A stretch of DNA of 64,000 bases from an uncultured bacterium (lineage in GTDB: Bacteria > Acidobacteriota > Thermoanaerobaculia > Multivoradales > JAHZIX01): NCBI GenBank assembly GCA_965368975.1, contig CBDUPA010000003.1:224001-288000 (forward strand), in the 5' to 3' direction. Both the position numbers and the translations under genes were made by a program. Of the stretch, positions 19,827-42,775 are shown in pieces; the first letter of the stretch is position 1, and each line of letters starts with the position of its first letter. The notes under the pieces are model-generated. The model did not search any database, was not told where the DNA came from, and saw only the letters and a list, made by a program, of their open reading frames with translations.

Positions 19827-20573
19827 TTGCAAAAGACTGTGAAGCACGATTATCAAGCCTGGCTTCTTCCCGAGAACGTACTAGGCGCCATTCAGACACT
19901 AGCGTTAATCTTTGCTGGGATGTGGGGTATTTTTATTTTCGTGAAGTTCGAAGAGGCGGAAAGATCTCTTCAGGCGGAGTTACTGAAAAGTCAAAATTCT
20001 CAGGCAGAACTCTCTCAGCAGATCGCGTCGTTGGAACTCCTGCAGCAGGAGAATCAGGTGCGCACAATGCAAAGTGCACGGCATGCCATAGATCAGAGTA
20101 TCGAGATTCAAACCATTGAGAGTGAAGAAGAGCGGAATACCTATCTTGTGACATATGAGTATGCAGTCTACAATACGGGGGACTCAGCCATTGAAGTTAC
20201 CTATATAGTTGTTTATGCATACATCTTTGATAACTTCTTTTTGGCGCCTATGCGGGCGATGGAGGTGCCTAGATTTGGTACTGAACTAGGGTCTGGATGG
20301 GAGCCGATTCTCGATAAGGGGTATTACTATGGTCCTCACTGGAAAGAAGGAATGACCTTTGTCTCGAAGCAGGGAGGAAGAGCAGAATTTCTGAAGGGTG
20401 GCGGAGGTACCTCAGAACTTGACCCTTCAGAACGGTCTGTGGGTGATGTTCAGCTGCTGATTAGGGCTGAGCCTGGTAGTATCATCGGATTCGAAGCAGT
20501 GATCGGTATCAATGGAGGGAAGGACCCCGTTGACCGATTGCATTTGAGAGATAAGGCGCTCCTCTTGGAGTGA
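19827..20573 (+). CDS. Hypothetical membrane-anchored protein (TM + coiled coil + beta-rich domain)
   Basis: AAGGAG RBS before TTG; one N-terminal TM, Gln/Glu coiled coil; long ORF in AT-richer DNA. Confidence 0.65.
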   Translation: MQKTVKHDYQAWLLPENVLGAIQTLALIFAGMWGIFIFVKFEEAERSLQAELLKSQNSQAELSQQIASLELLQQENQVRTMQSARHAIDQSIEIQTIESEEERNTYLVTYEYAVYNTGDSAIEVTYIVVYAYIFDNFFLAPMRAMEVPRFGTELGSGWEPILDKGYYYGPHWKEGMTFVSKQGGRAEFLKGGGGTSELDPSERSVGDVQLLIRAEPGSIIGFEAVIGINGGKDPVDRLHLRDKALLLE

Positions 20574-20999: not shown

Positions 21000-22508
21000 T
21001 TAGGCCGGTTCGAAGCAGGCGTGGAATCCTAGCCGCACCGGCTTCGGTAGCGGCAAGCGTGCTACTGGCCCGGCCGCGACGTCGAAGGCGTCGAACAGCA
21101 GGAAAGCACCCGTACCTGTCTCGGCGGCGAATTCTTGGATCAAGATCAGGCCTTCGTCCGTCTTCTCGGGATGCGGCAGGAACGTCGGTTCACCGCCCAG
21201 GTAGCACTTGGGCGGAGCTTGCCAGAAGCCAGCGGCGCCGCCGCTCGACTTGAGCTTGGGCGTGTCCTTCCAGCTCAGGTGCACGAGACGATCAAAGAAC
21301 TTCCGTCCCGGCTTCGCTGTGTGCGACAGGGCGAGGACCCAGAAGTCGTCATAGGGTTGTTCCAGACGCCGTGGATCGATGTGCGGGAAGTCGCACATCA
21401 GGTCGTGGCCCAGTTCTCGACGCTCGACCAGCTCACCGGCTCTGGGATCGAGTACGAAGCGCACCGGCCGTGCATGGCGGACGTCTTCGAACAGGTGATC
21501 GGGGACGCCGTACTGGTCGTAGACGGGGCGTTCGAGTTCGATCACGTCGACCACCAGGTAGGTCTTCTCTCCATCGCGACGCTCGAAGCTGTTGACCAGG
21601 TGCAGGCAGTAGCGGTCGCCCAGTTCGACCTCGCAAAGGGCGCTACCGTCGTCGCGGCGGGCGATCAGTAGCTTGCTGCCGAGCGGTTGGGTTTGACCTT
21701 CGAGCGTGGGCCGCCAAGTCAGGGCATCCATCAGCGTCGCCTGGCTGCCCATCAGCGCGTCCATGTCGAGCACGTAGGGACTCAGATAGATCACCAGGTG
21801 GTGCGGCGCCAGGGCGAAGTCGTGCACCGAGCGCGGAGCATCGAGAGGCAAGCGCTGACGGTAGATCGACGCGCCCTGGGCATCGAAACGGTAGACATGC
21901 ACGCACGGTCGGCGAGCGGCGAAAGAAACGCCGAAGTTGAACAGCTCGCCGCTCTGGCCGTCGATCTTCGGGTGCGCCGAGAAGGGGCTGATGGCGTTCA
22001 GGCGGCCGTCGAAGGTGAAGACCTCTTTGGTCTCGAGGGTCTCTGGATCCAGTTCCCAGGGTAGGCCTTGTTCGCCAAAGGCCAGCAGCGTGCCGGCTGC
22101 CGGGTAGATGCTGACGTTGAGCGGGGACTCGAGACCGATCCCGTGCTTGAGCTGGTCGTCCTCGAAGGCGGTGCCGAAGGTGCGGTACAGCGCGTGTCCG
22201 GCGGCGTCTTCGTCGCGCACCTTGGTGCCGTGGACGAAGCGGTGGGTGAAGCGGACACGATCCTGCGTTCCGTTGCCGGTACCGGCGCTGCCGCCAAAAC
22301 GCAAACGGCTGACCTGGCCGTCACCATCCAGCCAATGTCCATAGCGCTGGGTGCCACGGCGAAACCGCGCAGGGCCGTTGAGGTAGTAGTTCCCGCGCAG
22401 CCAGGACGGAATGTCTCCTTCGATCTCGGTCAACTCCAGGTCGCCTTCCCACAATTCGAGGTCGAAGGCGCGTTCGAGCAGGGGAGCGTGGTCGGCGTTG
22501 GGCATCAT
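21000..22508 (-). CDS. Carotenoid oxygenase / RPE65-family non-heme iron dioxygenase
   Basis: GDIPSWLRG.YYLNGP, HWLDGDG, four His ligands (SAHPK, VHDF, LHLVN, GFHA), DFP, GEP.F. Confidence 0.9.
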   Translation of the reverse strand: MMPNADHAPLLERAFDLELWEGDLELTEIEGDIPSWLRGNYYLNGPARFRRGTQRYGHWLDGDGQVSRLRFGGSAGTGNGTQDRVRFTHRFVHGTKVRDEDAAGHALYRTFGTAFEDDQLKHGIGLESPLNVSIYPAAGTLLAFGEQGLPWELDPETLETKEVFTFDGRLNAISPFSAHPKIDGQSGELFNFGVSFAARRPCVHVYRFDAQGASIYRQRLPLDAPRSVHDFALAPHHLVIYLSPYVLDMDALMGSQATLMDALTWRPTLEGQTQPLGSKLLIARRDDGSALCEVELGDRYCLHLVNSFERRDGEKTYLVVDVIELERPVYDQYGVPDHLFEDVRHARPVRFVLDPRAGELVERRELGHDLMCDFPHIDPRRLEQPYDDFWVLALSHTAKPGRKFFDRLVHLSWKDTPKLKSSGGAAGFWQAPPKCYLGGEPTFLPHPEKTDEGLILIQEFAAETGTGAFLLFDAFDVAAGPVARLPLPKPVRLGFHACFEPA

Positions 22509-22516
22509 CGTTCTCC

Positions 22517-24382
22517 TCAGGTGGAGCGGAAGCGGTCGAGGACGGTCGGGTCGAGTTGCCAGGCATGAGCCCGGCCATCGGCGTGGTCGACAGCCAGAGC
22601 CGCCCAGGTCTCGGGCATGAAGTCCAGCGCGTCGAGATCGAGGGATGCGACGAAGCCGGCGTCGCTGCGCAGCTCGGGTCGTTCGAGCACCACCGAGGCC
22701 ACGTGGGCGGCGAGAAAGCGGGCGAACTCTTCGAGGCTGGTGAGCTGGGCATCGAGCACCCGGCGGGCCTCATCCGCGTCGACGCCGACCTCATAGAAGG
22801 TCGTTTCGGCGCGGCGCAGCGGTGCCAGGTCCATGAAATCGAAAAAACACGGCTCCCCGCGACCGGCGCCCGGGTGTGCGCGCTCGCTCTTCCATTGGAA
22901 GAAGCCGCTGAGCAGGCGCTGGACGCCGTGGTTGGTCGGGCCCAGGCGGGCGAAGCGGCGCAGCCAGCCGAGCGCGAAGCGGCGGTCGGTGAGCAGGTCG
23001 TTGATGAAGGGGAAGACGTAGTAGGCGAAGTAGACGGTCAGCTCCCAGGTGTACTTGAGGCTGAAGGCTTCCTGGTCGCCGAGGGCGTCATAGCTGACGG
23101 TGTACGTCGGTTCGTAGGCGGCGTAGACGCCGCGCATCAACTGCTCCGAGAGCGAGCACTTGTCAGCCAGGCGCTGGCGGCCGGCTTGGTCCGTCGTGTC
23201 GGTCTCAATGGCATCGACGATCAACGTGTTGTAGACGGAGATCAGGTCACTGCCGGGACTATAGAGCGGGTCGCTGAAGCGCCCGGCCTCACCCGCCAGC
23301 GCCCAGCGTCGCGGGTGGAGGGTCTGCTCGCAGTCGTAGGAGAAGTCCTTGTAGCCACCGAAATCGACCACGTTCCGCCGCGGTAGATCGTGGGCGAAAC
23401 AGGGGAAGCGCTCGCACACCCAGGCGGTTGCCTTGTCGACGGTGAAGACGTCGCGGTAGTCGACCACCGCCTTGTCGAAGACCAGGCCGAGGCTGGTCTT
23501 GCCCTGCAGCGGGATGACCCAGAACCACAGCCCCTCGTCCATGAAGTGGTTGGTCGCTAGCCACGCAGGAAGGTGGCCTTGGTGGCGTCGCTGAGGTTTC
23601 TTGCGGATCTCGTCGCTGCTGGCGTCGGTGAGGCGATCGACGTCGACCAGACCGTCGACCCACCAGAAGAAGGCGGCGTGGTCGATCGAATTGTCTCGCG
23701 TCAGCTTTTCCTGCTTGGCCAGCAGCTTCCGGCGGCCGGTGGTGTCGACCACCCAGCCGGCGGCGACCTCGTACTCCGGTGCGTCCGTCTCGGGCCCACC
23801 TGAGTAGGTCTTCTGCGGGTCGCCGAGACGGAAACGCAGCTCATGGTCCTGGTCGGGGTCAGCCGGCGAGGAGCCGCGGTCGAGGTCGACCTGCAACTGC
23901 TGTACGCCCAGGCGAGCCGTGAAGCGTGGATTCTGCAGATTCCGCCGGAGCAGTTCGGCCTCGAAGGTATTGCGATCGAGCTGGTAGCTGGCGATGTTGG
24001 AGAACGGCCGAATGTAGGACTGGCTGTATTCCTCGAAGCGCTGGTTGCCGGCGCCGGGTGTCTTCCAGTAGAAGCGGAGGTTGTACTTCATGAAGTGGTG
24101 CAGGAAGAGATACTCTTCCAGCTCCAGGACGCGCGAGAAGTAGTAACCGGCGAGTTGCACGCTCGACTCTCCGACTTTCTGCCGCTTTTGCGGCAGCAGG
24201 TCTCGACGCTCCAACAACAGTACGCTCTTGTTGGTCTTGAGTAGCAGGTGGCGCGCGAGGCTGAGGCCGGCCAGGCCGCCACCGAGGATCACGACGTCGT
24301 AGCGCGCCGCAAGTGCCGTGCCGTCGGCGCTCGCGTTCACCTGCTCGGCAGTGAAATCCACGACGGGTTGAGGGGAGTTCAT
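22517..24382 (-). CDS. Flavin-dependent halogenase-like protein
   Basis: GGGLAG FAD motif, KVGES, FMKYNLRF (candidate catalytic Lys), WFWVIP (WxWxIP), FSDPLYSPG; ATG 24382 overlaps upstream stop. Confidence 0.8.
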   Translation of the reverse strand: MNSPQPVVDFTAEQVNASADGTALAARYDVVILGGGLAGLSLARHLLLKTNKSVLLLERRDLLPQKRQKVGESSVQLAGYYFSRVLELEEYLFLHHFMKYNLRFYWKTPGAGNQRFEEYSQSYIRPFSNIASYQLDRNTFEAELLRRNLQNPRFTARLGVQQLQVDLDRGSSPADPDQDHELRFRLGDPQKTYSGGPETDAPEYEVAAGWVVDTTGRRKLLAKQEKLTRDNSIDHAAFFWWVDGLVDVDRLTDASSDEIRKKPQRRHQGHLPAWLATNHFMDEGLWFWVIPLQGKTSLGLVFDKAVVDYRDVFTVDKATAWVCERFPCFAHDLPRRNVVDFGGYKDFSYDCEQTLHPRRWALAGEAGRFSDPLYSPGSDLISVYNTLIVDAIETDTTDQAGRQRLADKCSLSEQLMRGVYAAYEPTYTVSYDALGDQEAFSLKYTWELTVYFAYYVFPFINDLLTDRRFALGWLRRFARLGPTNHGVQRLLSGFFQWKSERAHPGAGRGEPCFFDFMDLAPLRRAETTFYEVGVDADEARRVLDAQLTSLEEFARFLAAHVASVVLERPELRSDAGFVASLDLDALDFMPETWAALAVDHADGRAHAWQLDPTVLDRFRST

Positions 24383-25659
24383 GATGGACCTCGAGTTGCG
24401 GACGACGTCTCCGGCGAAGCCTGGCTCTCTGCAGCAGACAGCTCTTCCGCCGCGGATAGTGGCCGGTTGCGGCCGTAGGTCTCGTGCGCGTCGACGAGTT
24501 CCGAGCTGGCGATGGCACCACCCATGGACAGCTCCCCCGCCAGCGCCATGGCGACCGCGATTTCGGCGAATTTGCGTGCCTTGCCACTGCCGACGCAGTC
24601 GAGCATGCGCAGGCACTCTTGGCTGGTACCGAGCGCGGTGCCGCCGCCGACCGTGGCGATGGTGAGCGCGGGGAGGGTGACGCTGGCGTAGAGGTCACCG
24701 TCGTCGGTCAGCTCGAACACCGTGATGCCGACCGCCGCGTTGGCGATGTTGGCGACGTCCTGTCCTGTGGCGAGAAACAGCGCCGTCAGACCGTTGGCCA
24801 AGTGTCCGTTGTAGCCCAGGGCAGCCGTCTGCAAGTGCCCGATCACCGTGTGCTGCCACATGCGCACCAAGGCCTCGGGGCTTGCGTGCAGAAGGCTACG
24901 GCAGATATCCGCCGGGATGCGAGCCCCGGCGACGGCGCGCTTTCCCTTGCCTCCGGCGAACAGAGAGCCGGCAGCACGTTTCTCGGCGCTGTAGCCACTG
25001 AAGATGTAGAACTCGGGTGCGTCCAGATGGTCGCGCAGCCAGGCGCACACCGCCTCGGTGGCTTTCACCGCCATGTTCATGCCCTGCGCATCGCCGGTAG
25101 AGAACACCAGGTTGAGAATCAGCTTGCGGCCCACGGGCTGCAGCTCGATGCGTAGCAGGGCACCGTGCTGGGTGGTGGTGGCGGCGGCGGCGCGCAGTTG
25201 CTCGAGGTGCGGTGGTAAGCGCTGGGCGAAGGCGTGAGCCCGCATGGCGGTGTCGAACAGGAAGACGGGAGAGACGCGATTCTCGTCGCTGTAGAGGCGC
25301 GCTTCGGCACCGCCAGCCCGTGTCAAGGCGACCATGCCGCGCTCGTAGGAGCGCACCAGGGTACCTTCGCTGGTCGCCATGGGGACGTAGAAGACACCGT
25401 CGGCATGCTCGCCGCGCACGTGCAACGGACCGGCGACGCCGAGTGGCGTTTGTACCGAGCCGATCGGGTTCTCGATGTTGCCGCGCAGGCTCTCGCCCGC
25501 CAGCGAGCAGCGCCCGACGTGCTCCAGGCTGGCGCCTGTCTGCGCCTCGACCCACTGGCGTCGACGCTCGATGTCGGCGTCGCTGTAGCCCTGCTTGCGC
25601 AGGCGTGGGACCAACCGCGGTGCGCGCTGAGTGGGCTCTTCTCTCGTGTCGCTCGTCAT
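24379..25659 (-). CDS. Class I HMG-CoA reductase-like protein
   Basis: ENPIG, PMATSEG, DAQGMNM, GQDVAN, TVGGGT, C-terminal AH. Confidence 0.88.
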   Translation of the reverse strand: MTSDTREEPTQRAPRLVPRLRKQGYSDADIERRRQWVEAQTGASLEHVGRCSLAGESLRGNIENPIGSVQTPLGVAGPLHVRGEHADGVFYVPMATSEGTLVRSYERGMVALTRAGGAEARLYSDENRVSPVFLFDTAMRAHAFAQRLPPHLEQLRAAAATTTQHGALLRIELQPVGRKLILNLVFSTGDAQGMNMAVKATEAVCAWLRDHLDAPEFYIFSGYSAEKRAAGSLFAGGKGKRAVAGARIPADICRSLLHASPEALVRMWQHTVIGHLQTAALGYNGHLANGLTALFLATGQDVANIANAAVGITVFELTDDGDLYASVTLPALTIATVGGGTALGTSQECLRMLDCVGSGKARKFAEIAVAMALAGELSMGGAIASSELVDAHETYGRNRPLSAAEELSAAESQASPETSSATRGPS

Positions 25660-27044
25660 GATGCCTCGTCCTCACGCTGCAGAATCAGCGCACATGCGTT
25701 GCCGTCTAGGCCGAGAGCCGTGACCAAGCCTCGGCGCACGGACGTGGAGCCGGCCGGACGCTGCCGCAGGGGTTGGCAGGTCGCCTGGACCGGCAGTGGG
25801 AAGGCGTCGGGAAGCTGCTCGAGTCCATGAACGCCCGGTAGCTCTCCCTGCGCCAACGCGGTGATCAGCGCTACCGTTTGCAGGGCTGGACCGGCGCCCA
25901 AGGCTTCGCCGAGCATCGACTTGACGGCGGTCACCGGCGGTAGGGACGTGCAGGAGCGGAAGGCGAGGGCCAGCCCGGCGGCTTCGTGCTGATCGCCTGC
26001 CGGACTGCCGTTGGCCGAGCAGCTGACAGCGTCGATGTCGTCGATCTGCACTTGTGCGTCGTCGAGGGCGATGGCGATAGCACGAGCGACGGCGTCGGCG
26101 GCCGACTCGGCGTCCCGCCCGCGCGACGGATCGAAGGCGTTCCCGTGACCGACCAGTTCAGCGTGGATCTGGGCGTCGCGCTCGCGTGCCGCGGCCAGAG
26201 GTTCGAGCATCAGCAGCGCCGCTCCTTCGCCGAGTGCGAAGCCGTCCCGGCCGGTGTCGAAGGGTACCGGTCGCTGCGTCTGCGTTGCTGCTCTCTCGGC
26301 GCCTGGACCGTTCGAGGCTGATCCGCTGAGATCCGGCCCACCCGTCATGCGTCCGGTGCGCAGAAAGCCGAAGAAGGAAGGCAGGCTCAACTCCTCGGCG
26401 CCGCCTGCGAGCACGGGGCCACTGCGGCCGGAGCGCACCATTTCGGTAGCGTAGGCCAAGGCTTGCAGGCCGGACGTGCTACCGGCGCACAGCGTCGAGT
26501 TGAGGCCGCGCAGGTCGTGCCAGATGGCCGCCTGGCCGGCGGCGGCGTTGATCACGGTATTGGCGAAGTCGAGGGGCTTGGCATACTGCGGCCCGAGTTC
26601 CAACGCCCGTTTGTCGAACTGCACGATCGTGCGCACGCTGCCGAACATGGTGCCGAGGACCAGGCCGACTTCGTCCTCGGCGCGGCGCTCTGGAGTCCAG
26701 CCCGCTTGCTCGAGCGCCAGGTGTGCCGCCACCGTCGTCAGGCGTCCGGTTCGGTCGAGTGGGCGGAAGTTACGCTTGCCCAGGTAGTCGAAAGGAGAGA
26801 AGCCTTCGATCGGGGCGCCCAGTCGACCTTCGATCGCTGGGCGCAGGGCCTCCGGTAGTTCGCCGTCGTCGGGCATCTCGTGCAGCGGACGCAGCGCGCT
26901 GTTGCCGCGGCACAACGCTGCGTGGAGGGTCTCGGCGGCGTCGCCCAGCGGGCTCAGCAGGCCGATTCCGGTCACCGCCACGCGTGCGGCAGTCGGGTGG
27001 TGGACGGTGCCCGTGGTGTGCCCGTGTCGTGTGCCTTTTGACAT
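25656..27044 (-). CDS. Ketosynthase-like protein lacking catalytic residues (chain-length-factor-like)
   Basis: KS fold (VTGIG, PFD..RDG..LGEGA) but AGSTSG at the Cys loop, SANGS for HGTGT and LGE for LGH. Confidence 0.85.
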   Translation of the reverse strand: MSKGTRHGHTTGTVHHPTAARVAVTGIGLLSPLGDAAETLHAALCRGNSALRPLHEMPDDGELPEALRPAIEGRLGAPIEGFSPFDYLGKRNFRPLDRTGRLTTVAAHLALEQAGWTPERRAEDEVGLVLGTMFGSVRTIVQFDKRALELGPQYAKPLDFANTVINAAAGQAAIWHDLRGLNSTLCAGSTSGLQALAYATEMVRSGRSGPVLAGGAEELSLPSFFGFLRTGRMTGGPDLSGSASNGPGAERAATQTQRPVPFDTGRDGFALGEGAALLMLEPLAAARERDAQIHAELVGHGNAFDPSRGRDAESAADAVARAIAIALDDAQVQIDDIDAVSCSANGSPAGDQHEAAGLALAFRSCTSLPPVTAVKSMLGEALGAGPALQTVALITALAQGELPGVHGLEQLPDAFPLPVQATCQPLRQRPAGSTSVRRGLVTALGLDGNACALILQREDEAS

Positions 27045-27055: not shown

Positions 27056-28294
27056 TCAGGCGGTCTTCCGAAAGAGTACGGAGGCGTTGTTGCCGCCGAA
27101 GGCGTAGGCGTTGTTCATCGCCACCTGGACGGTCACGTCGCGGGCCTCGTTGGGTACGCAGTCGAGCGGCATACAGTCTGGATCCTCCTCCTCGAAGTTC
27201 ATCGTCGGCGGGACCCGATCTTCATATGTCGCCAGGGCACAGACCGCAGCCTCGATCGCCGACGCGGCGCCCATGGTGTGCCCGAGCATGGACTTGATCG
27301 AACTCATCGGCGTCCTGCCCGCAGCGTCTCCGAAGACACGCCGTACCGCTGCACTTTCCAGGCGGTCGTTGGTCGGTGTGCCGGTGCCGTGGGCGCTGAT
27401 GTAGTCCACTTGCTCAGGACGAAGGCCGCATTCGGCGAGTGCCTTGCTCATCGCCCGTGCCGCCCCTCGACCCTCCGGGTGCGCTCCGGTCATGTGATGC
27501 GCGTCACAGGACAGGCCGTAGCCAGCAACCTCACTGTAAATCGTGGCGTCCCGTGCTACGGCACGCTCCCAGGGCTCGAGCACCAGCATGGCGGCTCCTT
27601 CACCTGGAATCATGCCCTTACGGTTGCGGTCGAAGGGTTGAACGCGCTCGGGGGCGATGGCTCCGACGCGCCAGAAGCCGGTGTAGGTGATGCGTGAGAA
27701 CGAGTCCGCACCACCTGCCAGCATGATGTCGGCGCGGCCGCTGCGCAGCACGTCGAAGGCGTGGGCGATGGCGTAGTTGCCGGCCGCGCAGGCTGCCGGG
27801 ATCATGGTGTTGACGCCCGAGAAGCCGAACTCCGCGGCCACGTAGCCCGGCACCACGTGGCAGGGGTAGAGGTTCATGAACTCCGGTCCCAACTCGGGTA
27901 GGGCCTGCGCAGCTTGGCGGTCATTGTAGTGCTCGACCTGCAGCGGTTCGCCGGAGGTCGTGCCGAGTGCCACGCCGATACGTTCGCTGCGGACGCCGTC
28001 ACCGAGATCGAGCCCGGCATCCTCGAGCGCTTGTCGCGTCGCCGCAATCGCCATCTGGGATGTGCGACCAATGTCGGCCGGATCGAGGTTGCGGACGTGC
28101 TGCGCGGCATCGAAGTCGCTGACTTCGGCGCCGCGGTCAGCGGTAAAGTTCGTGGTATCGAAGGAACGAACTGCGTGAATGCCGGAATCTCCGGCGAGCA
28201 AACGTTGCCATACCAACTGCCGACCGCTTCCCAGAGGGGTGACGAGGCCGATGCCGGTGATAGCGACGCGAGAGCAAGCGCTGCGCGTGGCCAT
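27056..28294 (-). CDS. Beta-ketoacyl-ACP synthase (FabF-like / type II PKS KS)
   Basis: Intact Cys-His-His triad: AACAAG, HGTGT, KSMLGHTMGA. Confidence 0.93.
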   Translation of the reverse strand: MATRSACSRVAITGIGLVTPLGSGRQLVWQRLLAGDSGIHAVRSFDTTNFTADRGAEVSDFDAAQHVRNLDPADIGRTSQMAIAATRQALEDAGLDLGDGVRSERIGVALGTTSGEPLQVEHYNDRQAAQALPELGPEFMNLYPCHVVPGYVAAEFGFSGVNTMIPAACAAGNYAIAHAFDVLRSGRADIMLAGGADSFSRITYTGFWRVGAIAPERVQPFDRNRKGMIPGEGAAMLVLEPWERAVARDATIYSEVAGYGLSCDAHHMTGAHPEGRGAARAMSKALAECGLRPEQVDYISAHGTGTPTNDRLESAAVRRVFGDAAGRTPMSSIKSMLGHTMGAASAIEAAVCALATYEDRVPPTMNFEEEDPDCMPLDCVPNEARDVTVQVAMNNAYAFGGNNASVLFRKTA

Positions 28295-28310: not shown

Positions 28311-28583
28311 CTACGCGGCTTGCGTGTCGTCGAGGTGCTGCCGGCGAAGGGTTCCTTGCACCAGGTCGACGGCTTCTTGGACGTTCTTCAAACTCTGGAG
28401 CCGCTCTTCCGGCAAGCCGAGCTTGAACTCATAGTCGACGTCGACGGCGATCTCCAGAAGGGACAGGGAGTCGAGGTCCAGTTCGTCCTGGAACGAGGCG
28501 TTGTCCCCGATCTCTTCCGCCGGGATACCGGTGACGTTGGTGATGATCTGCTTGATTCTGCCGCGAAGTTCAGAGGCTTCCAT
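28311..28583 (-). CDS. Acyl carrier protein
   Basis: 90 aa acidic protein with LDSL phosphopantetheine site; GGAGGA RBS. Confidence 0.92.
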   Translation of the reverse strand: MEASELRGRIKQIITNVTGIPAEEIGDNASFQDELDLDSLSLLEIAVDVDYEFKLGLPEERLQSLKNVQEAVDLVQGTLRRQHLDDTQAA

Positions 28584-28755: not shown

Positions 28756-29481
28756 TCAAATGCTATCAGAAGTCGTCAGCCAGCCGCGTTCCTGCGCGAG
28801 GTGCACGGCCTCGTGGCGGTTCTCGACCTCCAGCTTGTCGAGGATGTGGTGGACGTGATTCTTCACCGTATGCACCGACAAGTGCAGTTCCTGAGCGATG
28901 CGTTTGTTGGAGGCACCGTGCGCGATCAGCTGCAGGACCTCCATCTCGCGCGCTGTCAGCGCCAGGGCCTCCGCCCTCAGCCGTTTGCGATGACGTGCTT
29001 CCAGCTGTTCAAGGTGCTTGAGCAGAGCGCGGGTGATTGCCGGCGAGCTGACGGCCTCACCGGCGGCGAGCCGGCGCACGGCGTCCGCAAGTTCCACCAG
29101 CGACGTGTCGCGCGACAGGTAGCCGCGCACACCGGCACGTACGCTCGGAAGTAGCAGCGTGTCGACATCGAACGGACCCAGCAGCAGCAAGCGCGCTCCA
29201 TCCAGCTCGCGTGCCAGGTCGCGGATCAACGACAAGTCCTCGGCGTCGGAGCGGGCCGGCGCAATCAGCACCACGTCCGGTTGCTGCTCGCGACCCAGTT
29301 CGAGAGCCTCTGCGGCGTCGCCGGTGGCACCAGCGACCTCGAGATCCTCGCCATCCAAGGCCAGGATCAGGCAGTCACGCAGCACCTTGTGCGGTGTGAC
29401 CACCAGCAGGCGGATTTTCGGTCTCAACGGTACGTCTCCCTGCAGCTTCGCTCCCACCAGCGAACCTGCTCTGCGTTCCAC
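28756..29481 (-). CDS. NarL/LuxR-family regulator with atypical receiver domain
   Basis: LTAREMEVL..G.SNK.IA..L.LS.HTVKNHV HTH; DVVLIA in place of DVVLLD. Confidence 0.88.
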   Translation of the reverse strand: MERRAGSLVGAKLQGDVPLRPKIRLLVVTPHKVLRDCLILALDGEDLEVAGATGDAAEALELGREQQPDVVLIAPARSDAEDLSLIRDLARELDGARLLLLGPFDVDTLLLPSVRAGVRGYLSRDTSLVELADAVRRLAAGEAVSSPAITRALLKHLEQLEARHRKRLRAEALALTAREMEVLQLIAHGASNKRIAQELHLSVHTVKNHVHHILDKLEVENRHEAVHLAQERGWLTTSDSI

Positions 29482-29602
29482 GGCTGACCTCGTCCCGCCA
29501 GCGACGAGCCGTGGATTGCAGGACCGCCTGAGGATACCCGAAACGCTGTGCTTGTCAAAGCACCTGTTCCAGGGCGGTCACTGCCGGCATCGGCTTCGCG
29601 AT

Positions 29603-30331
29603 TCACCCGTCGAGTTCCTCATGGCGCTGCGTCTGCGACGATCGCGGTGCAGTCTCCTCTGCCCTTGAAGCTGGTGCCTCTGAAGCGGCTGCCTCTGAGG
29701 GGGGTGGCAGCCAACCACGGCGCTGTGCTTCGTCGACGGCTTGGGCGCGTCTGCGAGCGTTGAGTTTGTCCAGGATGTTGTGCACGTGGTTCTTGATCGT
29801 GTGGATCGACAGGCCGAGGCGCTCGGCCACGGCCTGATTGCCTAGCCCTTCCTGGATCAGCGTCAGGACATCCAGTTCGCGCGCCGTCACTCGTGGTTGC
29901 TGGTCCGAGGTGGTGGCCTGACGGTAGCGGGCTTGCAGCCGTCGGAGCAGAGCTGGCAACTCCTGTGGTGGGCAGCCTGCCTTGCCGCGCAGCGCTGGCC
30001 GCAGGATGTCGAGCAGCTCCCGGAAGCTGCATTCGCGCGACACGTAGGCGGGGGTCTTGTCCGCCAGTTCTGGCGGCACCATCAGCAACAGGCGGCAGTG
30101 ACTGGGCAGAGTACGCGCTACCTGGTTCAGTCGCAGCAGTTCCGTGGGGCGCCGTCCGTCGGTCTCTATGATCACCAGGGCTGGAGCCTCGGGCAGCAAC
30201 GGGGCAGTGTCGATGCGTAGGTCTGCCTGCACGACGGCGTGGTCTGGGAAGGCTCGCTCCAGGCGCGCGGCGAGGCCTTCACGCCAGACACCGAAATTAC
30301 TGAGCACGAGAAGTGTCGGACTGTCGAGCAT
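29603..30331 (-). CDS. LuxR-family regulator with degenerate receiver domain
   Basis: VTARELDVL...TIKNHVHNILDKL; start may be 30331 or 30367. Confidence 0.82.
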   Translation of the reverse strand: MLDSPTLLVLSNFGVWREGLAARLERAFPDHAVVQADLRIDTAPLLPEAPALVIIETDGRRPTELLRLNQVARTLPSHCRLLLMVPPELADKTPAYVSRECSFRELLDILRPALRGKAGCPPQELPALLRRLQARYRQATTSDQQPRVTARELDVLTLIQEGLGNQAVAERLGLSIHTIKNHVHNILDKLNARRRAQAVDEAQRRGWLPPPSEAAASEAPASRAEETAPRSSQTQRHEELDG

Positions 30332-30452
30332 GGTCTGGACCCGTTGGGAACGGCCCCTCGGTTGCACAAGCCGTCTCAGCTGCCGAAGAAGAGGAGCCGA
30401 AGAAGAAATGGAGAGCTGCGCGGCGTCTACCGTGCTTCAGGAGGCCGCGTCT

Positions 30453-31157
30453 TCAGACTGGAGAGCGGAGCGTCGAGCGCCACGGAGACTCGCCTTCCAA
30501 GATGCCGCTTTCGTAGGCACAGCGAATGGCATCGCGCCGACGGCGAACCTGGAACTTCGTGAGGATGTTGTGCACGTGGTTCTTGATCGTGGGCACGGTG
30601 ATTTCCAGGCGAGACGCGATTTCTTTGTTGCGCAGGCCACCCGCCATGTGCTGCAGCACTTGCAGTTCGCGCCGCGTCATGGCCACTCTCGCCGGTGCGC
30701 CGGACTCTGGCTCGGCAGTGAGGAGGCAGCGTAGCCGTTGGAGGGCGGCATCGAGCACTGGTTGCCCGAGATTGGGTTGCCGGCGGTGAACTTGACGGAT
30801 GTTGCCCAGGAGCTCCGGGATGGAGGCCTGTTTCAGACTGACGCTGGCAGCACCGGCTGCCAGGAGCTGTACGACCTGCGCTACGTTGTCGGCATCCAGA
30901 CCGAAGGGCAGAATCTCGGCGGCGGAGCCGACGGTGCGCAACTGCCGGGTGATGTCCAAAGCACGGCGCGTCCCGAGTCCGGTGTCGAGCAGGACCACAT
31001 CCGCCTGGCTGCGTTGCAGACGCTGCTGCGCCTCGCCATCGAAATCCTGACTCTCGCCGGCTAGCTGCAACTCGGCCTGGTCCTCGAGACAGTCACCCAG
31101 GACTTCTCGCATCAGGCGGTGGCGGCAGATCAGGAAGACGCGAATGGGGTCGTTCAT
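30453..31157 (-). CDS. NarL/LuxR-family regulator
   Basis: DVVLLD retained but N-terminal acidic pair replaced (LICRH); MTRRELQVL...TIKNHVHNIL. Confidence 0.86.
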   Translation of the reverse strand: MNDPIRVFLICRHRLMREVLGDCLEDQAELQLAGESQDFDGEAQQRLQRSQADVVLLDTGLGTRRALDITRQLRTVGSAAEILPFGLDADNVAQVVQLLAAGAASVSLKQASIPELLGNIRQVHRRQPNLGQPVLDAALQRLRCLLTAEPESGAPARVAMTRRELQVLQHMAGGLRNKEIASRLEITVPTIKNHVHNILTKFQVRRRRDAIRCAYESGILEGESPWRSTLRSPV

Positions 31158-31352
31158 GGCCAAGAAGGGGGTCCGACTGCACAAAGTTTTGCGCTACACG
31201 ACCCTTTGTCGATACTCATCAGATGTAAGATTCAATCGTTCGTGGGATTTCGAACGCTCCTGTGTTGCGATCATCGGTAACCCTACGTTTCAGGTCGAGC
31301 CGCGGCAATGAGTCGCAGGTCCTAAAAAGGATGCTGGCTCCTTAATGGTCGA

Positions 31353-32993: not shown

Positions 32994-34508
32994 ATGAAGA
33001 AGCCCGCCATGAAGAAGCCCGCCATGAACAACGTCGTCTCTCGAAGCTTTCCGGCCACGGCAGCCACGGTCGTGTCGATGCTGGCCCTGATGTCGATTCT
33101 GGCCCTGGTGACGGTGGCCGTACCGGCCAGCGCCGCAGGCAATCCCGTGGTTGCGGGTGATGCACTGCTGGCAGATGACGGTACCGTCTACCGGATCTTG
33201 GGTGGACCCTACAGCGAGCTCTTCCCCGAAGGCACCGAGGGGTTTGGAGCCGCGCCGGTGCTGGCGCTCGACGTCGTGAGCGCGGACGGAGACACCCATC
33301 GCTGGCTGGTTCCGGGGACCGGGGACGACGATCTCGATGGTCTGCCCGTTGCCGTCTATCAAGCCGCCACCAATGGTTTGTATCTCTTCTGGCAGAGCCG
33401 TATCGGCACCGACGCTCACTTGCAGCTGATCGGCTTCGATGGCGATGGCTTCGGAGACCGGATCGCCATCCTCAGCGAGGGCCAGACGCCGCGAGCTGGT
33501 TCCGCCGGCCTGACGGTGACCAGTGATCGCGTTCCGTCGAGTAGCGTGCAGGGGGCCACGGTCCAGCGTTCGGTCGTGCACCTGGTGTGGTGGGCCGAAA
33601 CGTCGGAGTTGGGTGAGGGCGCCTACTATGCGCCGGTGGTGCTCGAAGACGGCGCCTACCTGGGCTGGCATCCGGTGTTGCCCTTGAACACCCTGCAGCC
33701 TGCCGGCCCCCCGGCCGAGAGTGCCGGTTCCGGCGCTACCAACGTGCTGCCGAGCAATCCCGTGGTGCAGCCCGGCCGCGACCGCTGGTCCGTCGTGCTC
33801 GCTTTCACCGATGCGGAACGGCGTGAGCTGGTGACCGCCGAGGCACGTCTGCTGCCCGGTGAGCTGGTCACCCTGGCGCGCGAGGCGGCGGCCTTCGTCG
33901 ACGAGACCGACCCTGGTGTCGGTGGCGTCGAGAGCTTGGCCGAGGGCATCGGCAGCCACTTGATCGAGATCGGCTTCTGGGCTCATCCGTCGCTGCGCGG
34001 GTACTTCGCCACCTCGGCGCGCGACCGCTTGCTCGATCTGGCGTACGACTGGAACGCTCCAGCCATTCCGCAAGACGCGCTGGGCGAGAAGATCGGCAGC
34101 CACTTGATCGAGATCGGTTCGCGCTACTTCGGCCGTGACGGCTTCATCGATTTCGATGGGACCGAACCCGTGCATTTGCTCACTCTGCGTCCGGACGGCC
34201 CCGGTGTTGCCGGTAGCCTCGAGGAGGAAGACCTCGGCTTGCTAGAGGACACCTCGGCGCTGCACCTGATCCGACTCTACGTCGTGTCCCGCCTGTCGCT
34301 GCCCGATGCCGAGAGCGGTGACGGAGCCAAGGTCTTCGTCGGTGGCAGTGGCGAGCAGAGCCTGATCAGCTGGGAAGAGGGTGACACCATCCACTACCGC
34401 GAGAGCCGCGGTGCTGGCTGGACGCCGTCGCTCTCGTTGTCTCTGACTCCGGGCCTCGACCGTGAGCAAGCCTACCGCTTGCTGTCGGAACGCGTACGAG
34501 AGCGCTGA
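32994..34508 (+). CDS. Secreted hypothetical protein with duplicated IGSHLIEIG motif
   Basis: Long hydrophobic signal ending ASA; starts 5 nt after TPR stop. Confidence 0.75.
   Translation: MKKPAMKKPAMNNVVSRSFPATAATVVSMLALMSILALVTVAVPASAAGNPVVAGDALLADDGTVYRILGGPYSELFPEGTEGFGAAPVLALDVVSADGDTHRWLVPGTGDDDLDGLPVAVYQAATNGLYLFWQSRIGTDAHLQLIGFDGDGFGDRIAILSEGQTPRAGSAGLTVTSDRVPSSSVQGATVQRSVVHLVWWAETSELGEGAYYAPVVLEDGAYLGWHPVLPLNTLQPAGPPAESAGSGATNVLPSNPVVQPGRDRWSVVLAFTDAERRELVTAEARLLPGELVTLAREAAAFVDETDPGVGGVESLAEGIGSHLIEIGFWAHPSLRGYFATSARDRLLDLAYDWNAPAIPQDALGEKIGSHLIEIGSRYFGRDGFIDFDGTEPVHLLTLRPDGPGVAGSLEEEDLGLLEDTSALHLIRLYVVSRLSLPDAESGDGAKVFVGGSGEQSLISWEEGDTIHYRESRGAGWTPSLSLSLTPGLDREQAYRLLSERVRER
33948..34117 (+). 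repeat. Identical 26-bp direct repeat atcggcagccacttgatcgagatcgg
   Basis: Copies at 33948-33973 and 34092-34117, 144 bp apart and in frame. Confidence 0.92.
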
Positions 34509-36089: not shown

Positions 36090-38480
36090 CTAGAGCGCAA
36101 TCGGCGCTGACAAGAGGGCGCCCGGAATGCCGAAGGCGTCGACCAGGGCGCCGGCTTGTGGCCGTAATTCGGAGCACAGGGCGTCCACCTGTTCACGAAG
36201 GGCCAGGGAGGTCGAGGGAGCCAGGTACTGCTGTTCCAGGAACCAGCCACGGTCGGCTTCCAGGCGAGCCACCGCGTAGAGGTGGGCGACGCGGTCGAGG
36301 GTCTCGAGCAGGCTGGCGTCTGTGCCGCGGTCGCGGAGGTCTTCAAGGGCGGCGTCGAACTGTTCCAGCACCAGGCGCTCGACATGCGCCTTGCTCAGCT
36401 CTAGCAACGCACCCTGGCATTCTAGGAAGGCGTCGAAGCTATCCATGCCACGCTTCAAGCGGCTGCTCAGCGCGCGTGCTGTCGCGATCAGCAGGTGCTG
36501 CTCGCGCCAGCGCAGAGTGGCCAGCTGGAAGCCGCGGCGGTCGCGCAGCTTGGCCGGGTCGGTTGTGCCGAGCAACGCCGGCACCTGGGCGTCGAGTTCG
36601 GTGCCCGCGAGGTCGGCCAGGTGTCGCACCAGGTCGAAGAAACTCAGGTTCTCGAAGCTCTTGCGGAAGGCGCTGAGCAGGCCCTTGGCGACCAGTTGCA
36701 GCAGCACAGTGTTGTCGCCCTCGAAGGTAGTGAAGATGTCGCTGTCGGCCTTGAGACTGGCGAAGCGGTTGATCGCCAAGTAGCCTTGACCACCGCAAGC
36801 CTCACGGCATTCCTGCACGGTGTCGGTCGCGTGCCAGGTGCTGTAGGCCTTGAGGCCGGCGGCCAGGGACTCGACCTCGCGGCGTGCGGCGTCGCGATCC
36901 TCGGTGTGCTCCGACGGTAGCTGACCGGGACTCTCGGCAGCGAAGGCCTGCGCGTGCTTGGCGGCCAGGTGACGCATGGCGTAGTGCAGAGCATAGGTGG
37001 TGGCCAGGCGCGGCAGCAGACGGTGCTGGTGGCTGCGGTAGTCGAGCAGCACGATCTCGGGTCCGCCCTCGGGACCGAACTGACGCCGCCGCAGGGCGTA
37101 GCGAACGGCAATGGTGAGCGCCGACTTGGCGACCGAGACGCCGGCGCAAGCCACCGCCACGCGGCCGCCCACTAGCGTTCCGAGCATGGTGAAGAAGCGC
37201 TTGCCCGGGCTTGGGATGGGGCTGCTGTACTCGCCGTCGGCGGACACCGCGCCGAAGCGGTCGAGCAGATTCTCGCGTGGCACGCGCACGCGCTGGAAGG
37301 TGAGGCGGCCGTTGTCGACGCCTTCGAGGCCGAGCTTGCGGCCACAATCCTCGATGGTCACGCCCGGCAGCGCCTGGCCGCGAGCGTCGCGGATCGGCAC
37401 CAGGAAAGCGTGGACGCCGTGCTCGTCGACACCACTGCCCTGGCGAGAGCCGCCGCTGCGCGGAATCTCCAACTGCGCGAAGACGGTCGCCAGTCGTCCG
37501 TGGGCGGCAGCGTTGCCGATGTAGTCCTTGCGTGCCTCGGGCGTCGGTGTGTGGATCTCGAAGACGCCGGCCTGCTTGAGGTAGCGGGCCCGGGTTTCGA
37601 CGTCCCGCACGTTGGAGCCGTGACCGGTTTCAGTCATGGCGAAGCAGCCGGGCAGGGCTAGAGCGGCGACATCGCGCAGGTAGCGGTGGTGATGGCGGTC
37701 GGTACCCAGTTGCAAGATGCTGCCGCCGAACAAGCCGAACTGCACGCCGAACTTGACCAGCAGGCTGAGGTCGCCGAAGGCCAAGGTTTCGAAGGTCGCG
37801 ACGAAGGCGCCGAGGTTGCCGCCGCCGCCATAGACTGGCGGATAGCTCTGGCCGCCGAAGCCGGCGTCGGCGAGCTTGTGACAGGCGTCGAGGACCCACT
37901 GCCGATAGGCGGGCCGCGGCAGCTCGGGGGCGCGCGCCAGGTTCTCGCGTTCAAGCAGGCCGAGCAGGCGGCGGCGCAGACCTCCGTGCGGTTCGGCGAG
38001 CACATGGGCCAGGTGTTCTGGCGAGAAGCTCGCGGTCGAGGGTGCTGTGCTCCCGTGAGTCTGGCCAGCACCACGACGCCCCAGCAGTCGCCGTGCCGCT
38101 TCTGGACCGACGACGCCGAGAGCCGCTTCGAGCTGCTGTAGCGCACGCATCTCGGCGTCCGATAGCGCCCGGTCGGAGGGGAGCAGACGCTGGCCCAGCT
38201 GGCTCAGGTCGAGGCGCTCCTCGGGGCTCAGCTCGGTGGCGCTGTCGCGAATACGGTGCAGGATGTCCTGGAGCTGCTGGGCCGACGGTGGCTGCTCGGG
38301 GTCGAGGAAGCCGGTCAGCAAGTCCGCGCACCTGTAGCCATCTGCGTCCGCTTCGACCTGTGCGCAGATGGTACGAATCTCGGCGATGCTCAGCGCACCG
38401 TCGGCCCAGGCGATGTGCAACATCGGCAGGTAGGGCAGCAGGCGTGGGTCACGCAGCGGATCTTCCAGGTTCGAACTCAT
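36090..38480 (-). CDS. Acyl-CoA oxidase/dehydrogenase with N-terminal TerB-like extension
   Basis: GCFAMTETGHGSNV, KDYIGNAA, GVDNG, CREACGGQGY, TFEGDN; N-terminal AWADG.LS..E. Confidence 0.88.
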   Translation of the reverse strand: MSSNLEDPLRDPRLLPYLPMLHIAWADGALSIAEIRTICAQVEADADGYRCADLLTGFLDPEQPPSAQQLQDILHRIRDSATELSPEERLDLSQLGQRLLPSDRALSDAEMRALQQLEAALGVVGPEAARRLLGRRGAGQTHGSTAPSTASFSPEHLAHVLAEPHGGLRRRLLGLLERENLARAPELPRPAYRQWVLDACHKLADAGFGGQSYPPVYGGGGNLGAFVATFETLAFGDLSLLVKFGVQFGLFGGSILQLGTDRHHHRYLRDVAALALPGCFAMTETGHGSNVRDVETRARYLKQAGVFEIHTPTPEARKDYIGNAAAHGRLATVFAQLEIPRSGGSRQGSGVDEHGVHAFLVPIRDARGQALPGVTIEDCGRKLGLEGVDNGRLTFQRVRVPRENLLDRFGAVSADGEYSSPIPSPGKRFFTMLGTLVGGRVAVACAGVSVAKSALTIAVRYALRRRQFGPEGGPEIVLLDYRSHQHRLLPRLATTYALHYAMRHLAAKHAQAFAAESPGQLPSEHTEDRDAARREVESLAAGLKAYSTWHATDTVQECREACGGQGYLAINRFASLKADSDIFTTFEGDNTVLLQLVAKGLLSAFRKSFENLSFFDLVRHLADLAGTELDAQVPALLGTTDPAKLRDRRGFQLATLRWREQHLLIATARALSSRLKRGMDSFDAFLECQGALLELSKAHVERLVLEQFDAALEDLRDRGTDASLLETLDRVAHLYAVARLEADRGWFLEQQYLAPSTSLALREQVDALCSELRPQAGALVDAFGIPGALLSAPIAL

Positions 38481-38505
38481 GTGGGCCTCCGATCAGCGGA
38501 ACGGG

Positions 38506-40236: not shown

Positions 40237-40311
40237 TCCCCGAACCCTAGCACTGCGCGCGGCCTGGCACCATGTAGGGCGACGCTGCGCGCCAGTGATG
40301 GACAGTCCGCG

Positions 40312-41608: not shown

Positions 41609-42775
41609 GTGCTCGACCGCGTGGAAGTTTCGGCCCCTGGCAAGCTGATCCTGATGGGAGAGCACGCTGTGGTCTACGGTCAGCCGGCACTGGTGGCCGC
41701 AGTTGACTTGCGGCTTCAGGTCCGTCTGCGCCGCGCTCCGGAGGTCCGTGGCTTGCGCCTGTCCTTGCCCGACCTCGATCCTCCGGGCGATGCTGCTGGC
41801 CTCGAGGCTGCCGTGCCGTGGAGGCAAATCGACACCGAGACGCGGCAGGCCGCGGAGCGCTGGCAACGTTGGTACGACGCGGCGGGCGCGCTGCCGTTCG
41901 ACGCGGCAGGCGGCGTGCGTGCGGTACGCCTGGCGGTCGGAGAGGCACGCGCCGCGGCTGAACGGCTGGGGCTCCGGGTACCCGAGGACGTCGGCGCCGA
42001 GCTGGAAATCCGGTCCGAGCTTCCGGTGGGGGCCGGTTTTGGTAGCTCGGCGGCGATGGCGGTGGCGATTGTCCTGGCGTGGTGGCGGTGGTGGGGCATC
42101 GAGGTCGAGGCTCGCGACCAGTCGGACTTGCGCGCCGAAGTGCAGCGCACGGCGTTGGAGATCGAACGGCGACAGCATGGCACGCCATCGGGCGTCGATA
42201 CCGCGGCGGTCTTGCACGGTGGTCTGCTCTGGGCACGGCGGCGCCAGGATGGCAGCGTCGAGATGGAGCTTCTGGAGCCAGCCCACGATGGGCTGCGCGA
42301 ATTGTGCGTCTTCCATAGCGGCACGCCTGCCGAGACCACCGGCGAAGTCGTGGCGGCGGTGCGCGCGCGACGCCGGCAGCGCCCGACACAGGTGGACGCG
42401 GCTCTCGACGAACTCGGAAGCGCGGCGCATGCGCTGCGAGCGTACCTGACGCAGCAGGATGCCCCGCGCGCCGACCTGCTGGCGGCCGTCCGGCACGCGG
42501 AAGCCCGGCTCGAGACACTCGGTGTGGTGCCCGAGCCGGTGCGTCGGCGGTTCCGGCAGCTGGAGGCCGCGGGCGGTGCCGGCAAGATCTCGGGGGCGGG
42601 TGCGCTCAGCGGTGAGGCTGCGGGTTGCGTCCTGGCCGTGCCCCCCTCAGAGGCTGTCGCAGGGACTCGACCACCGGCAACGAGCGAACCTCTGCCGGGG
42701 CTGGACGGGCTGAGTCGTCTCTACGTGGGCCTGGGCGGCACAGGGGCGCTTTCGGCAACGGCTACTTTGGGCTAA
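41609..42775 (+). CDS. mvk: Mevalonate kinase (GHMP family)
   Basis: SAPGKLILMGEHAVVYG, PVGAGFGSSAA, HGTPSGVD, KISGAG. Confidence 0.85.
   Translation: MLDRVEVSAPGKLILMGEHAVVYGQPALVAAVDLRLQVRLRRAPEVRGLRLSLPDLDPPGDAAGLEAAVPWRQIDTETRQAAERWQRWYDAAGALPFDAAGGVRAVRLAVGEARAAAERLGLRVPEDVGAELEIRSELPVGAGFGSSAAMAVAIVLAWWRWWGIEVEARDQSDLRAEVQRTALEIERRQHGTPSGVDTAAVLHGGLLWARRRQDGSVEMELLEPAHDGLRELCVFHSGTPAETTGEVVAAVRARRRQRPTQVDAALDELGSAAHALRAYLTQQDAPRADLLAAVRHAEARLETLGVVPEPVRRRFRQLEAAGGAGKISGAGALSGEAAGCVLAVPPSEAVAGTRPPATSEPLPGLDGLSRLYVGLGGTGALSATATLG

Follow-up and report, generated by a model that had tools for sequence, protein, structure and literature searches.

What does a homologue of 3-hydroxy-3-methylglutaryl-CoA (HMG-CoA) reductase (HMGR) do in an operon that begins with an acyl carrier protein and two ketosynthase-like proteins? 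The question is raised by a 64,000-nucleotide stretch of an acidobacterial genome (C3:224001-288000; the genome measures 7.1 Mb in 59 contigs and is 99.3% complete), which we call the window. In it, the gene termed here HMGR-B stands fourth in a compact minus-strand operon encoding an acyl carrier protein (ACP), a ketosynthase (KS), a chain-length-factor-like protein (CLF), HMGR-B, a flavoenzyme and a carotenoid-oxygenase-like protein. A preliminary description of the locus had suggested that the enzyme reduces a pantetheine-linked thioester other than HMG-CoA and acts in chain release, a suggestion that our analysis supports on computational grounds, each proposed check that computation could address agreeing with it. 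We propose that HMGR-B is an NADPH-dependent acyl-thioester reductase, and the interpretation that we favour, with a probability of roughly 0.55, is that it releases the acyl chain of the cluster ACP reductively as an alcohol. It is very probably not a mevalonate-forming HMGR.

Catalytic residues and substrate pocket of HMGR-B

24379..25659, minus strand: HMGR-B, class I HMG-CoA-reductase-fold protein of 426 aa (PF00368, TIGR00533, residue mapping, AlphaFold2 model, Foldseek)

The open reading frame (ORF) is a real, full-length class I HMGR homologue. The PF00368 (HMG-CoA_red) profile spans residues 30-397, corresponding to profile positions 2-368 of 368 (E 1.7e-103, 346.9 bits), and the AlphaFold2 model, built from a 53-sequence alignment (pLDDT 84.1, pTM 0.82), finds its top structural match in the Methanothermococcus enzyme 6hr7 (TM 0.82/0.88, 38% identity). 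Residues were mapped through HMMER alignments against human 1dq8, Arabidopsis 7uli and 8ecg, and 6hr7 (264 bits for the last). In human numbering, which is used below for all homologous positions, E98 corresponds to E559 (MATSEG), K227 to K691, D301 to D767 (ATGQD), H392 to H866 and N289 to N755, and the cofactor motifs DAQGMNM and TVGGGT are present. The catalytic and NADPH motifs had been called intact from the sequence by eye, and every one named is found by alignment to the solved enzymes. Since the catalytic residues are retained, HMGR-type chemistry on a thioester is to be expected. In fold (TM 0.82-0.88), in identity (32-38%) and in its catalytic and NADPH motifs HMGR-B resembles the canonical class I enzymes (human 1DQA, Methanothermococcus 6HR7).

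It departs from them in the pocket that receives HMG. Where the canonical sequence is DGMTRGP, HMGR-B reads DENRVSP, so that R590 is replaced by V129 with an Arg one position before; D690 is replaced by E226, K692 by R228 and K735 by H270, and position 862 is Leu, as in the canonical enzymes. The earlier statement that the HMG-carboxylate-binding positions differ thus holds in the alignment to solved structures at all four of R590, D690, K692 and K735. The accompanying reading of the cis-loop, SGNYCTDKK to SGYSAEKR, stands in part: the changes at D690 and K692 are borne out, and the state of S684 hangs on the placement of a gap. HMMER against the human and archaeal enzymes introduces a one-residue gap in this loop and leaves S684 in place; against Arabidopsis, and in a MAFFT alignment of 156 sequences, the loop is ungapped, with S684 becoming Phe and N686 becoming Gly. 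Depending on the alignment, S684 of HMGR-B is read either as retained or as Phe.

Are these substitutions peculiar to one sequence? We followed them through 80 related loci, nearly all in metagenome-assembled genomes (MAGs) of Acidobacteriota, whose products are 50-67% identical to HMGR-B. E559, K691, N755 and D767 are retained in 80/80 of these orthologues and H866 in 79/80, the remaining sequence being cut off. The pocket positions read as follows across the 80 orthologues:

Position R590: Val in 31, Ile in 28, Thr in 21; no Arg
Position M588: Asn in 80
Position D690: Glu in 80
Position K692: Arg in 73
Position K735: Ser in 43, His in 22, Arg in 8, Ala in 3, Asp in 2, Thr in 1, Gln in 1; no Lys
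Position L862: Phe in 75; no Trp
Position S865: Ala in 79

Judged from these alignments, the altered HMG pocket is a fixed signature of the clade and not an artefact of comparison by eye. The pocket is not conserved at R590, D690, K692 or K735, and the pattern that replaces it is fixed in the 80 orthologues. The loss of cationic residues and their hydrophobic replacements disfavour HMG as the substrate. HMGR-B differs from canonical HMGRs in the replacement of R590 and K735, in D690E and K692R, in the absence of mevalonate-pathway neighbours and in its score against the class I equivalog-domain model TIGR00533, 315.6 bits against a cut-off of 441.8.

The operon and its predicted carrier-protein contact

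The remaining features of the operon, in the order of transcription and preceded by the regulators upstream of it, are:

28756..31184, minus strand: three tandem LuxR-family (GerE helix-turn-helix) regulators, upstream of the operon (PF00196, partial receiver domains)
28311..28583, minus strand: acyl carrier protein, 90 aa, DSL motif with Ser39 (PF00550, E 3.8e-11)
27056..28294, minus strand: ketosynthase, 412 aa, Cys-His-His intact (PF00109, PF02801; AACAAG, HGTGT, GHTMGA)
25656..27044, minus strand: chain-length-factor-like KS paralogue, 462 aa, no catalytic triad (PF00109, PF02801)
22517..24382, minus strand: FAD-dependent Trp-halogenase/monooxygenase-like enzyme (PF04820, PF01266, PF13450)
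21000..22508, minus strand: carotenoid-cleavage-oxygenase/lignostilbene-dioxygenase family protein, 502 aa (PF03055, E 2.6e-91; NF053778 score 152.5, under its cut-off)

HMGR-B is translationally coupled within this operon: its start shares 4 nt with the CLF stop, and the flavoenzyme, whose probable start is the ATG at 24382 from the start codon and the alignment starts of homologues, overlaps the HMGR-B stop by ATGA. The cluster combines the features of a type II polyketide synthase (PKS)-like system, in that its KS has Cys-His-His, its CLF is without the catalytic Cys, and its discrete ACP bears a DSL motif. When the CLF is aligned to the KS, Ser occupies the Cys position and Ser and Glu the two His positions, and D38, S39 and L40 of the ACP are invariant among 35 orthologues. 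The KS is closest to PDB 9S5H/9S5I, a solved complex of KS and CLF that includes an ACP chain (KS to 9s5h_B, 474 bits, about 58% identity; CLF to 9s5h_C, 206.7 bits), and the work behind these entries may already describe this KS/CLF family. Next comes the ishigamide KS Iga11 (6kxd; 322.7 bits, 41% identity). The highly reducing type II PKS of ishigamide (Iga11/Iga12) shares with our cluster a triad KS, a CLF-like partner and a discrete ACP; we know of no HMGR-like reductase in that system, and the ketoreductase (KR) and dehydratase (DH) genes found in highly reducing type II PKSs were not found in the window operon. It had been noted before that no HMG-CoA synthase lies nearby and that the cluster has no thioesterase, and among 16 scanned ORFs of the window between 13586 and 40617 domains of neither were found; the domain scans of the operon likewise revealed no acyl-CoA ligase.

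The surroundings contain several further genes. An 800-aa acyl-CoA-oxidase-like protein with a weak TerB-like N-terminal match is encoded at 36090-38492 on the minus strand, adjoining the gene for a CLC channel with a TrkA_C domain (38506-40617). Two plus-strand ORFs flanking the operon, 32994-34508 and 19827-20573, have no Pfam match, and the latter has no NCBIfam match either.

How constant is this arrangement? Among the relatives, 68 of the 80 loci extend at least 3 kb upstream of HMGR-B and 69 at least 3 kb downstream. KS and CLF lie immediately upstream on the same strand in 48/68, and anywhere in the locus in 52/68. Downstream, a CrtI/CrtISO-like flavoenzyme is present in 63/69 loci, a PlsC-like acyltransferase with an N-terminal extension of about 330 residues in 48/69, a short-chain dehydrogenase/reductase (SDR) in 35/69, an ABC1 kinase in 17/69, a carotenoid-oxygenase-like gene in 11/69 and a halogenase-like flavoenzyme in 8/69. 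Counted from the KS (61 loci extending 3 kb or more downstream), the CLF follows in 60/61, HMGR-B in 43/61, the CrtI-like gene in 42/61, the flavoenzyme in 23/61 and the oxygenase in 19/61; the 18 KS loci without HMGR-B mostly take the form ACP-KS-CLF-flavoenzyme-oxygenase, and in many relatives the flavoenzyme directly follows ACP-KS-CLF. No dehydratase or enoyl reductase was seen in the relatives' loci scanned, where a KR-type SDR was the one reducing enzyme observed.

One MAG carries an ACP-KS-CLF-flavoenzyme-oxygenase module and an HMGR-B/CrtI-like module on separate contigs (L253 and L037), and the genome under study is divided in a comparable way. An operon at C12:85822-89146, behind a LuxR gene, encodes a second ACP (sharing 60% identity with that of the cluster), a PlsC-like acyltransferase and an ABC1 kinase, followed by several ORFs without a Pfam match, and a CrtI-like gene stands alone at C8:188501-189991. 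With modules split over contigs both in the MAG and in this genome, the genes can be regarded as one shuffled set. LuxR-like genes occur upstream in several relatives too. The 52 loci of the sister-clade protein P0004 offer a comparison: the ACP-KS-CLF-HMGR-CrtI-like arrangement is found solely in L259 and in none of the other 51, and L259, from Latescibacterota, is itself B-type (62% identical). By gene content, then, the link to ACP-KS-CLF and a CrtI-like gene is specific to the HMGR-B clade. Genomes that bear the labels Poribacteria, Zixibacteria, Nitrospinota or Pirellulaceae also encode close relatives of the KS. Recurrent in or near the clusters (L014, L015, L023, L053) are large FG-GAP/VCBS-repeat proteins containing UnbV_ASPIC domains, as well as an AhpC/TSA peroxiredoxin.

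A reductase acting on the chain made by this operon would have to meet its carrier protein, and a complex of two HMGR-B copies (residues 12-402) with the cluster ACP, each supplied as an alignment, was predicted. The interface score ipSAE between HMGR-B and the ACP is 0.65 (runs of 0.65, 0.64 and 0.66), where the highest-scoring of three controls gives 0.00; the three runs share at least 90% of contacts, and the pLDDT of the partner is 86. The prediction with the cluster ACP that the preliminary description had called for thus separates clearly from its controls. The docking mark was reached by 58/80 solved complexes and 2/110 mismatched pairs, counts that serve only as a rough guide here because our job used its own alignments and two copies of the enzyme. 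To our knowledge there is no solved HMGR-ACP complex, so recall by the prediction model is unlikely.

In the predicted complex, ACP residues 36-41, comprising the DSL motif with Ser39, and helix II contact residues 15-23 of one HMGR-B subunit, and the same ACP surface contacts residues 103, 106, 107, 110, 251 and 254-256 of the second. HMGR-B residues 103-108 (LVRSYERG) align with human LVASTNRG, whose ASTNRG stretch we take to be part of the CoA-binding site. The phosphopantetheine serine of the cluster ACP is thereby predicted to sit at the CoA cleft. The interface residues R103 and E106 are present in 80/80 B-type sequences, whereas canonical and Trp862 sequences have Ala at the R103 position in 17/17 and mostly Asn at the E106 position. 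That an ACP carries the substrate of HMGR-B is an assignment for which we see the odds as only somewhat better than even.

Other homologues in the genome and in the family

Is HMGR-B the only enzyme of its kind in this organism? A PF00368 profile search of the genome returned three homologues, HMGR-A, HMGR-B and HMGR-C, and HMGR-B as the sole HMGR was accordingly rejected. HMGR-C (C16:104499-105779; L005:9500-10780, minus strand) scores 377.9 against the class II equivalog TIGR00532, above its cut-off of 259.95, and is flanked by a polyprenyl synthase and by MenF-like, MenD-like and UbiA genes, neighbours from which HMGR appears to be linked to quinone synthesis in this genome. The search for a second HMGR, recommended in the preliminary description, therefore yields one above its equivalog cut-off and beside a polyprenyl synthase, so that HMGR-B is not the only HMGR and HMGR-C is the better candidate for mevalonate formation. 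HMGR-A (C3:309893-311449; L004:8894-10450, minus strand) lies about 60 kb past the window, directly upstream of an ABC1 kinase gene. Its 518 aa include an N-terminal PF25653 ('Lad') domain, and with Glu684 and Trp862 it combines a small residue at position 735. Relatives sharing 64-73% identity are spread over Acidobacteriota, Chloroflexota (a Promineifilaceae MAG among them), Rhodothermales and other groups.

A phmmer search of 1.84 billion representative sequences gave 3300 matches at E <= 0.001, just one full-length representative being more than 50% identical to HMGR-B. A tree of 156 sequences was built (FastTree, LG+gamma, rooted on HMGR-C). Beside the three homologues of this genome it includes sequences from 16 of the 80 loci and, out of the 150 representatives nearest HMGR-B, 137, the other 13 having been excluded for a length below 370 aa or a match to under 300 residues of the query. 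The HMGR-B clade has 18 tips with support 1.0 (0.95 with two sister tips added), and is nested in a 52-tip clade, support 0.97, all members of which lack R590. Canonical HMGRs with R590, K735 and L862 form a separate 7-tip clade (support 1.0) with HMGR-B outside it, and the Trp862 FcrA-type clade that includes HMGR-A (8 tips, support 0.99) also stands apart. N-terminal PilZ (c-di-GMP-binding) domains, one or two, occur in 6/10 scanned relatives of the R590-less clade, the fusion proteins being P0008, P0012, P0015, P0017, P0019 and P0024; we know of no published description of such a fusion. Another representative, P0022 (1043 aa), is a natural fusion of AMP-binding, PP-binding (carrier) and HMGR-like domains, an architecture suggesting that the HMGR fold performs terminal reduction of acyl groups attached to a carrier.

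Could HMGR-B nevertheless be a genuine, divergent HMG-CoA reductase that supplies mevalonate, for example for an isoprenoid modified by the CrtI-like and carotenoid-oxygenase-like neighbours? The organism appears from its gene complement to depend on mevalonate, since Dxr and IspH were not found in the genome, a mevalonate-kinase-like gene is present in the window (41633-42604; 149.8 bits, slightly under the cut-off) and a diphosphomevalonate decarboxylase scores above its cut-off. This reliance, the carotenoid-type families among the neighbours, the intact catalytic tetrad, N755 and NADPH motifs, and the Leu862 of this copy would all fit such a role. Set against them are the loss of R590 and K735 in 80/80 orthologues, the score below the equivalog cut-off, the position outside the canonical clade and the class II HMGR, above its own cut-off, that adjoins a polyprenyl synthase. 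The fixed partners of HMGR-B are moreover ACP, KS and CLF, and scans of cluster ORFs in the window and in seven relatives' loci showed neither a phytoene synthase nor a prenyl synthase. We consider a mevalonate-forming HMGR-B very improbable; that it reduces some other acyl thioester is, by our estimate, probable.

A precedent for such activity exists in FcrA (Grossi et al., ISME J 2025, PMC11948995), described there as a class I HMGR homologue that converts acyl-CoA of C14 and longer to alcohols with NADPH. According to that paper, FcrA is inactive on HMG-CoA and insensitive to simvastatin; it retains the four catalytic residues, and has Ser684 changed to Glu, the pocket Lys to a small residue and Leu862 to a bulky one (Trp in N. 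pharaonis). In some members an alkyl-binding "Lad" domain is present at the N terminus, or an ACP is fused to the enzyme, and the paper points out PlsC-like neighbours and suggests roles in ether lipids (PMC11948995). With its publication, it is established that the HMGR fold can be repurposed to reduce acyl thioesters. HMGR-A matches FcrA in every sequence feature and is, to judge from these, a typical FcrA-type fatty acyl-CoA reductase.

Should HMGR-B be placed beside it, as an FcrA-like reductase of free acyl-CoA whose fatty alcohols go into wax esters or ether lipids, with ACP, KS and CLF merely supplying the acid? The two share the fold, the catalytic Glu, Lys, Asp and His, a non-Lys residue at 735 (His in this copy, where FcrA generally has a small residue), PlsC-like acyltransferase genes nearby and the proposed NADPH-dependent four-electron reduction of an acyl thioester, and position 862 is bulky in most HMGR-B orthologues (Leu in this copy). 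FcrA is the sole enzyme of the fold characterised with a substrate other than HMG, and that substrate is acyl-CoA (PMC11948995); the non-Lys 735 and the Phe862 of 75/80 orthologues are FcrA-like, and the acyltransferase found downstream in 48/69 loci recalls the PlsC-like neighbours of that paper. HMGR-B, however, has Phe or Ser in place of Glu684, lacks Trp862 and the Lad domain, and has lost the R590 that FcrA retains. Its clade is separate (support 1.0) from the Trp862 clade, although with weak joining nodes it may yet belong to the wider FcrA/putative FcrA group of that paper; it resides in an ACP-KS-CLF operon in which neither acyl-CoA ligase nor thioesterase was seen, and its predicted partner is a discrete ACP, docked above controls through the clade-specific contacts R103 and E106. 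Identity with ordinary FcrA was rejected for the lack of Glu684, Trp862 and the Lad domain, and HMGR-A already fills the FcrA role in this genome. An acyl-CoA-specific HMGR-B of the broader kind outlined above seems unlikely to us, if well within consideration.

Proposed reductive release of a carrier-bound chain

What would the reaction look like? In the reading that we favour, the KS/CLF pair would build an acyl chain on the cluster ACP, a step to which the operon and the docking point together. HMGR-B, having lost the residues that bind the HMG carboxylate and branch, would transfer hydride to the thioester through a hemithioacetal with its Glu, Lys, Asp, His and Asn755, and would free the chain as an alcohol, possibly via an aldehyde, in place of a thioesterase. 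The product would then enter a conserved acidobacterial lipid or polyene pathway with CrtI-like flavoenzyme, PlsC-like acyltransferase, ABC1 kinase, flavin monooxygenase-like and carotenoid-oxygenase-like partners. We infer that the substrate is an acyl group rather than HMG, the carrier ACP rather than CoA and the reduction of four rather than two electrons, and likewise the type of chain. The evidence suggests a 3-hydroxyacyl or polyenoyl chain. With a KR-type SDR as the only reducer seen in the clusters, and with an HMGR being able to make a 1,3-diol from a 3-hydroxyacyl thioester, conversion of 3-hydroxyacyl-ACP to a 1,3-diol is our guess; the analogy with ishigamide and the CrtI-like and oxygenase genes would accommodate a polyenoyl chain instead.

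Class II HMGRs are able to work oxidatively, which raises the further question of whether HMGR-B might stop at the aldehyde after two electrons, or run in reverse as an acylating alcohol or aldehyde oxidiser, with the flavoenzyme and oxygenase handling the aldehyde. The downstream oxygenase and flavoenzyme could indeed use aldehydes or alkenes. HMGR-B keeps all residues for both reduction steps, however, and PMC11948995 describes for HMGR and FcrA a full four-electron reduction without release of an aldehyde, free aldehyde not being reduced by FcrA. We regard termination at the aldehyde, or reversal, as improbable.

The task proposed for HMGR-B is one that other proteins perform with other folds. 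The SDR-type R domains of nonribosomal peptide synthetases and PKSs and the fatty acyl reductase (FAR) domains of ElbD/MXAN_1675 do the same job, converting a carrier-bound acyl group to an aldehyde or alcohol, but have a Rossmann SDR fold unrelated to that of HMGR, and HMGR-B is not a member. In ElbD a reductase is combined with an ACP and with an acyltransferase of the AGPAT-like type (PMC9131029). Membership of the operon in the Elb ether-lipid cluster was rejected, the elb genes belonging to other families (FAR/ACS/ACP/AGPAT, HAD and epimerase-type; PMC9131029). In gene logic the cluster recalls the candidate ladderane cluster of anammox bacteria, kuste3603-3608, which contains an ACP, a FabF, a non-canonical FabF and a phytoene-desaturase-like gene (PMC4790861). 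The shared set of ACP, KS, KS variant and CrtI-type gene is a likeness by gene content alone; that cluster differs in having no HMGR-like gene listed in Table 2 of the paper, and its radical SAM and FabZ genes were not seen here. We found no description of an ACP-KS-CLF-HMGR-like cluster in open-access papers or on bioRxiv.

Several observations weigh against reductive release from the ACP and moderate our confidence in it. Acyl-reductase activity is a prediction for every member of the HMGR-B clade, the complex score is a confidence of the model and not a measurement, and the characterised relative FcrA acts on CoA esters and not on ACP. HMGR-B itself has Leu862, along with Ser684 under the gapped alignment; D690E and K692R are conservative, and an Arg adjoins the R590 position. 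The deep nodes that join the clades of the tree are weak (0.24-0.83), its sample being biased to the 150 nearest relatives of HMGR-B. Over a distance of 8 kb, 16/68 orthologous loci lack KS/CLF, the genes of this genome for the CrtI-like enzyme and the acyltransferase lie on other contigs (C8, C12), and the CrtI-like and carotenoid-oxygenase-like neighbours belong to families with an isoprenoid flavour.

The mevalonate route, too, is not fully accounted for, a search of the genome with PF01154, PF08540 and TIGR01835 having revealed no HMG-CoA synthase; the weak matches to these profiles are FabH-like, and of the 21 genomes searched, among which this one is counted, 9 have the synthase. An ACP-based mevalonate route, with ACP, KS, CLF and HMGR-B replacing the missing synthase, was considered but, given the loss of the residues that bind the HMG carboxylate and a CLF without catalytic residues, set aside as a less likely reading.

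That HMGR homologues can reduce acyl thioesters other than HMG-CoA has been known since 2025, which makes the idea first put forward for this locus less novel. What is new here, from sequence and gene content, is a clade with its own pocket signature and none of the hallmarks of FcrA, fixed in an ACP-KS-CLF/CrtI-like gene set across Acidobacteriota. Very tentatively, and with more doubt than confidence, we suggest that the clade comprises dedicated, ACP-docking release reductases for a so far undescribed lipid pathway of type II PKS-like character, widespread in Acidobacteriota and present in Latescibacterota too. A 3-hydroxy or polyunsaturated chain would there be reduced to a long-chain 1,3-diol or polyenol and turned, through the CrtI-like, PlsC-like and carotenoid-oxygenase-like enzymes, into a new alkyl, diol or polyene membrane lipid or signal.

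Genome annotation gives all these proteins the name HMG-CoA reductase, and so wrongly implies mevalonate metabolism and masks a biosynthetic cluster that is common in soil Acidobacteriota. Alkyl and ether lipids of Acidobacteriota serve as environmental proxies and their biosynthesis is unsettled, although no evidence presented here links the cluster to them. Should the favoured reading be true, the HMGR fold would act as a chain-release enzyme on a carrier protein, adding to the thioesterases and SDR-type reductases of type II systems a third chemistry of release, and the discovery made in 2025 with FcrA would be extended from CoA esters to ACP esters. The cluster would then be a starting point for finding a new lipid or polyene of Acidobacteria.

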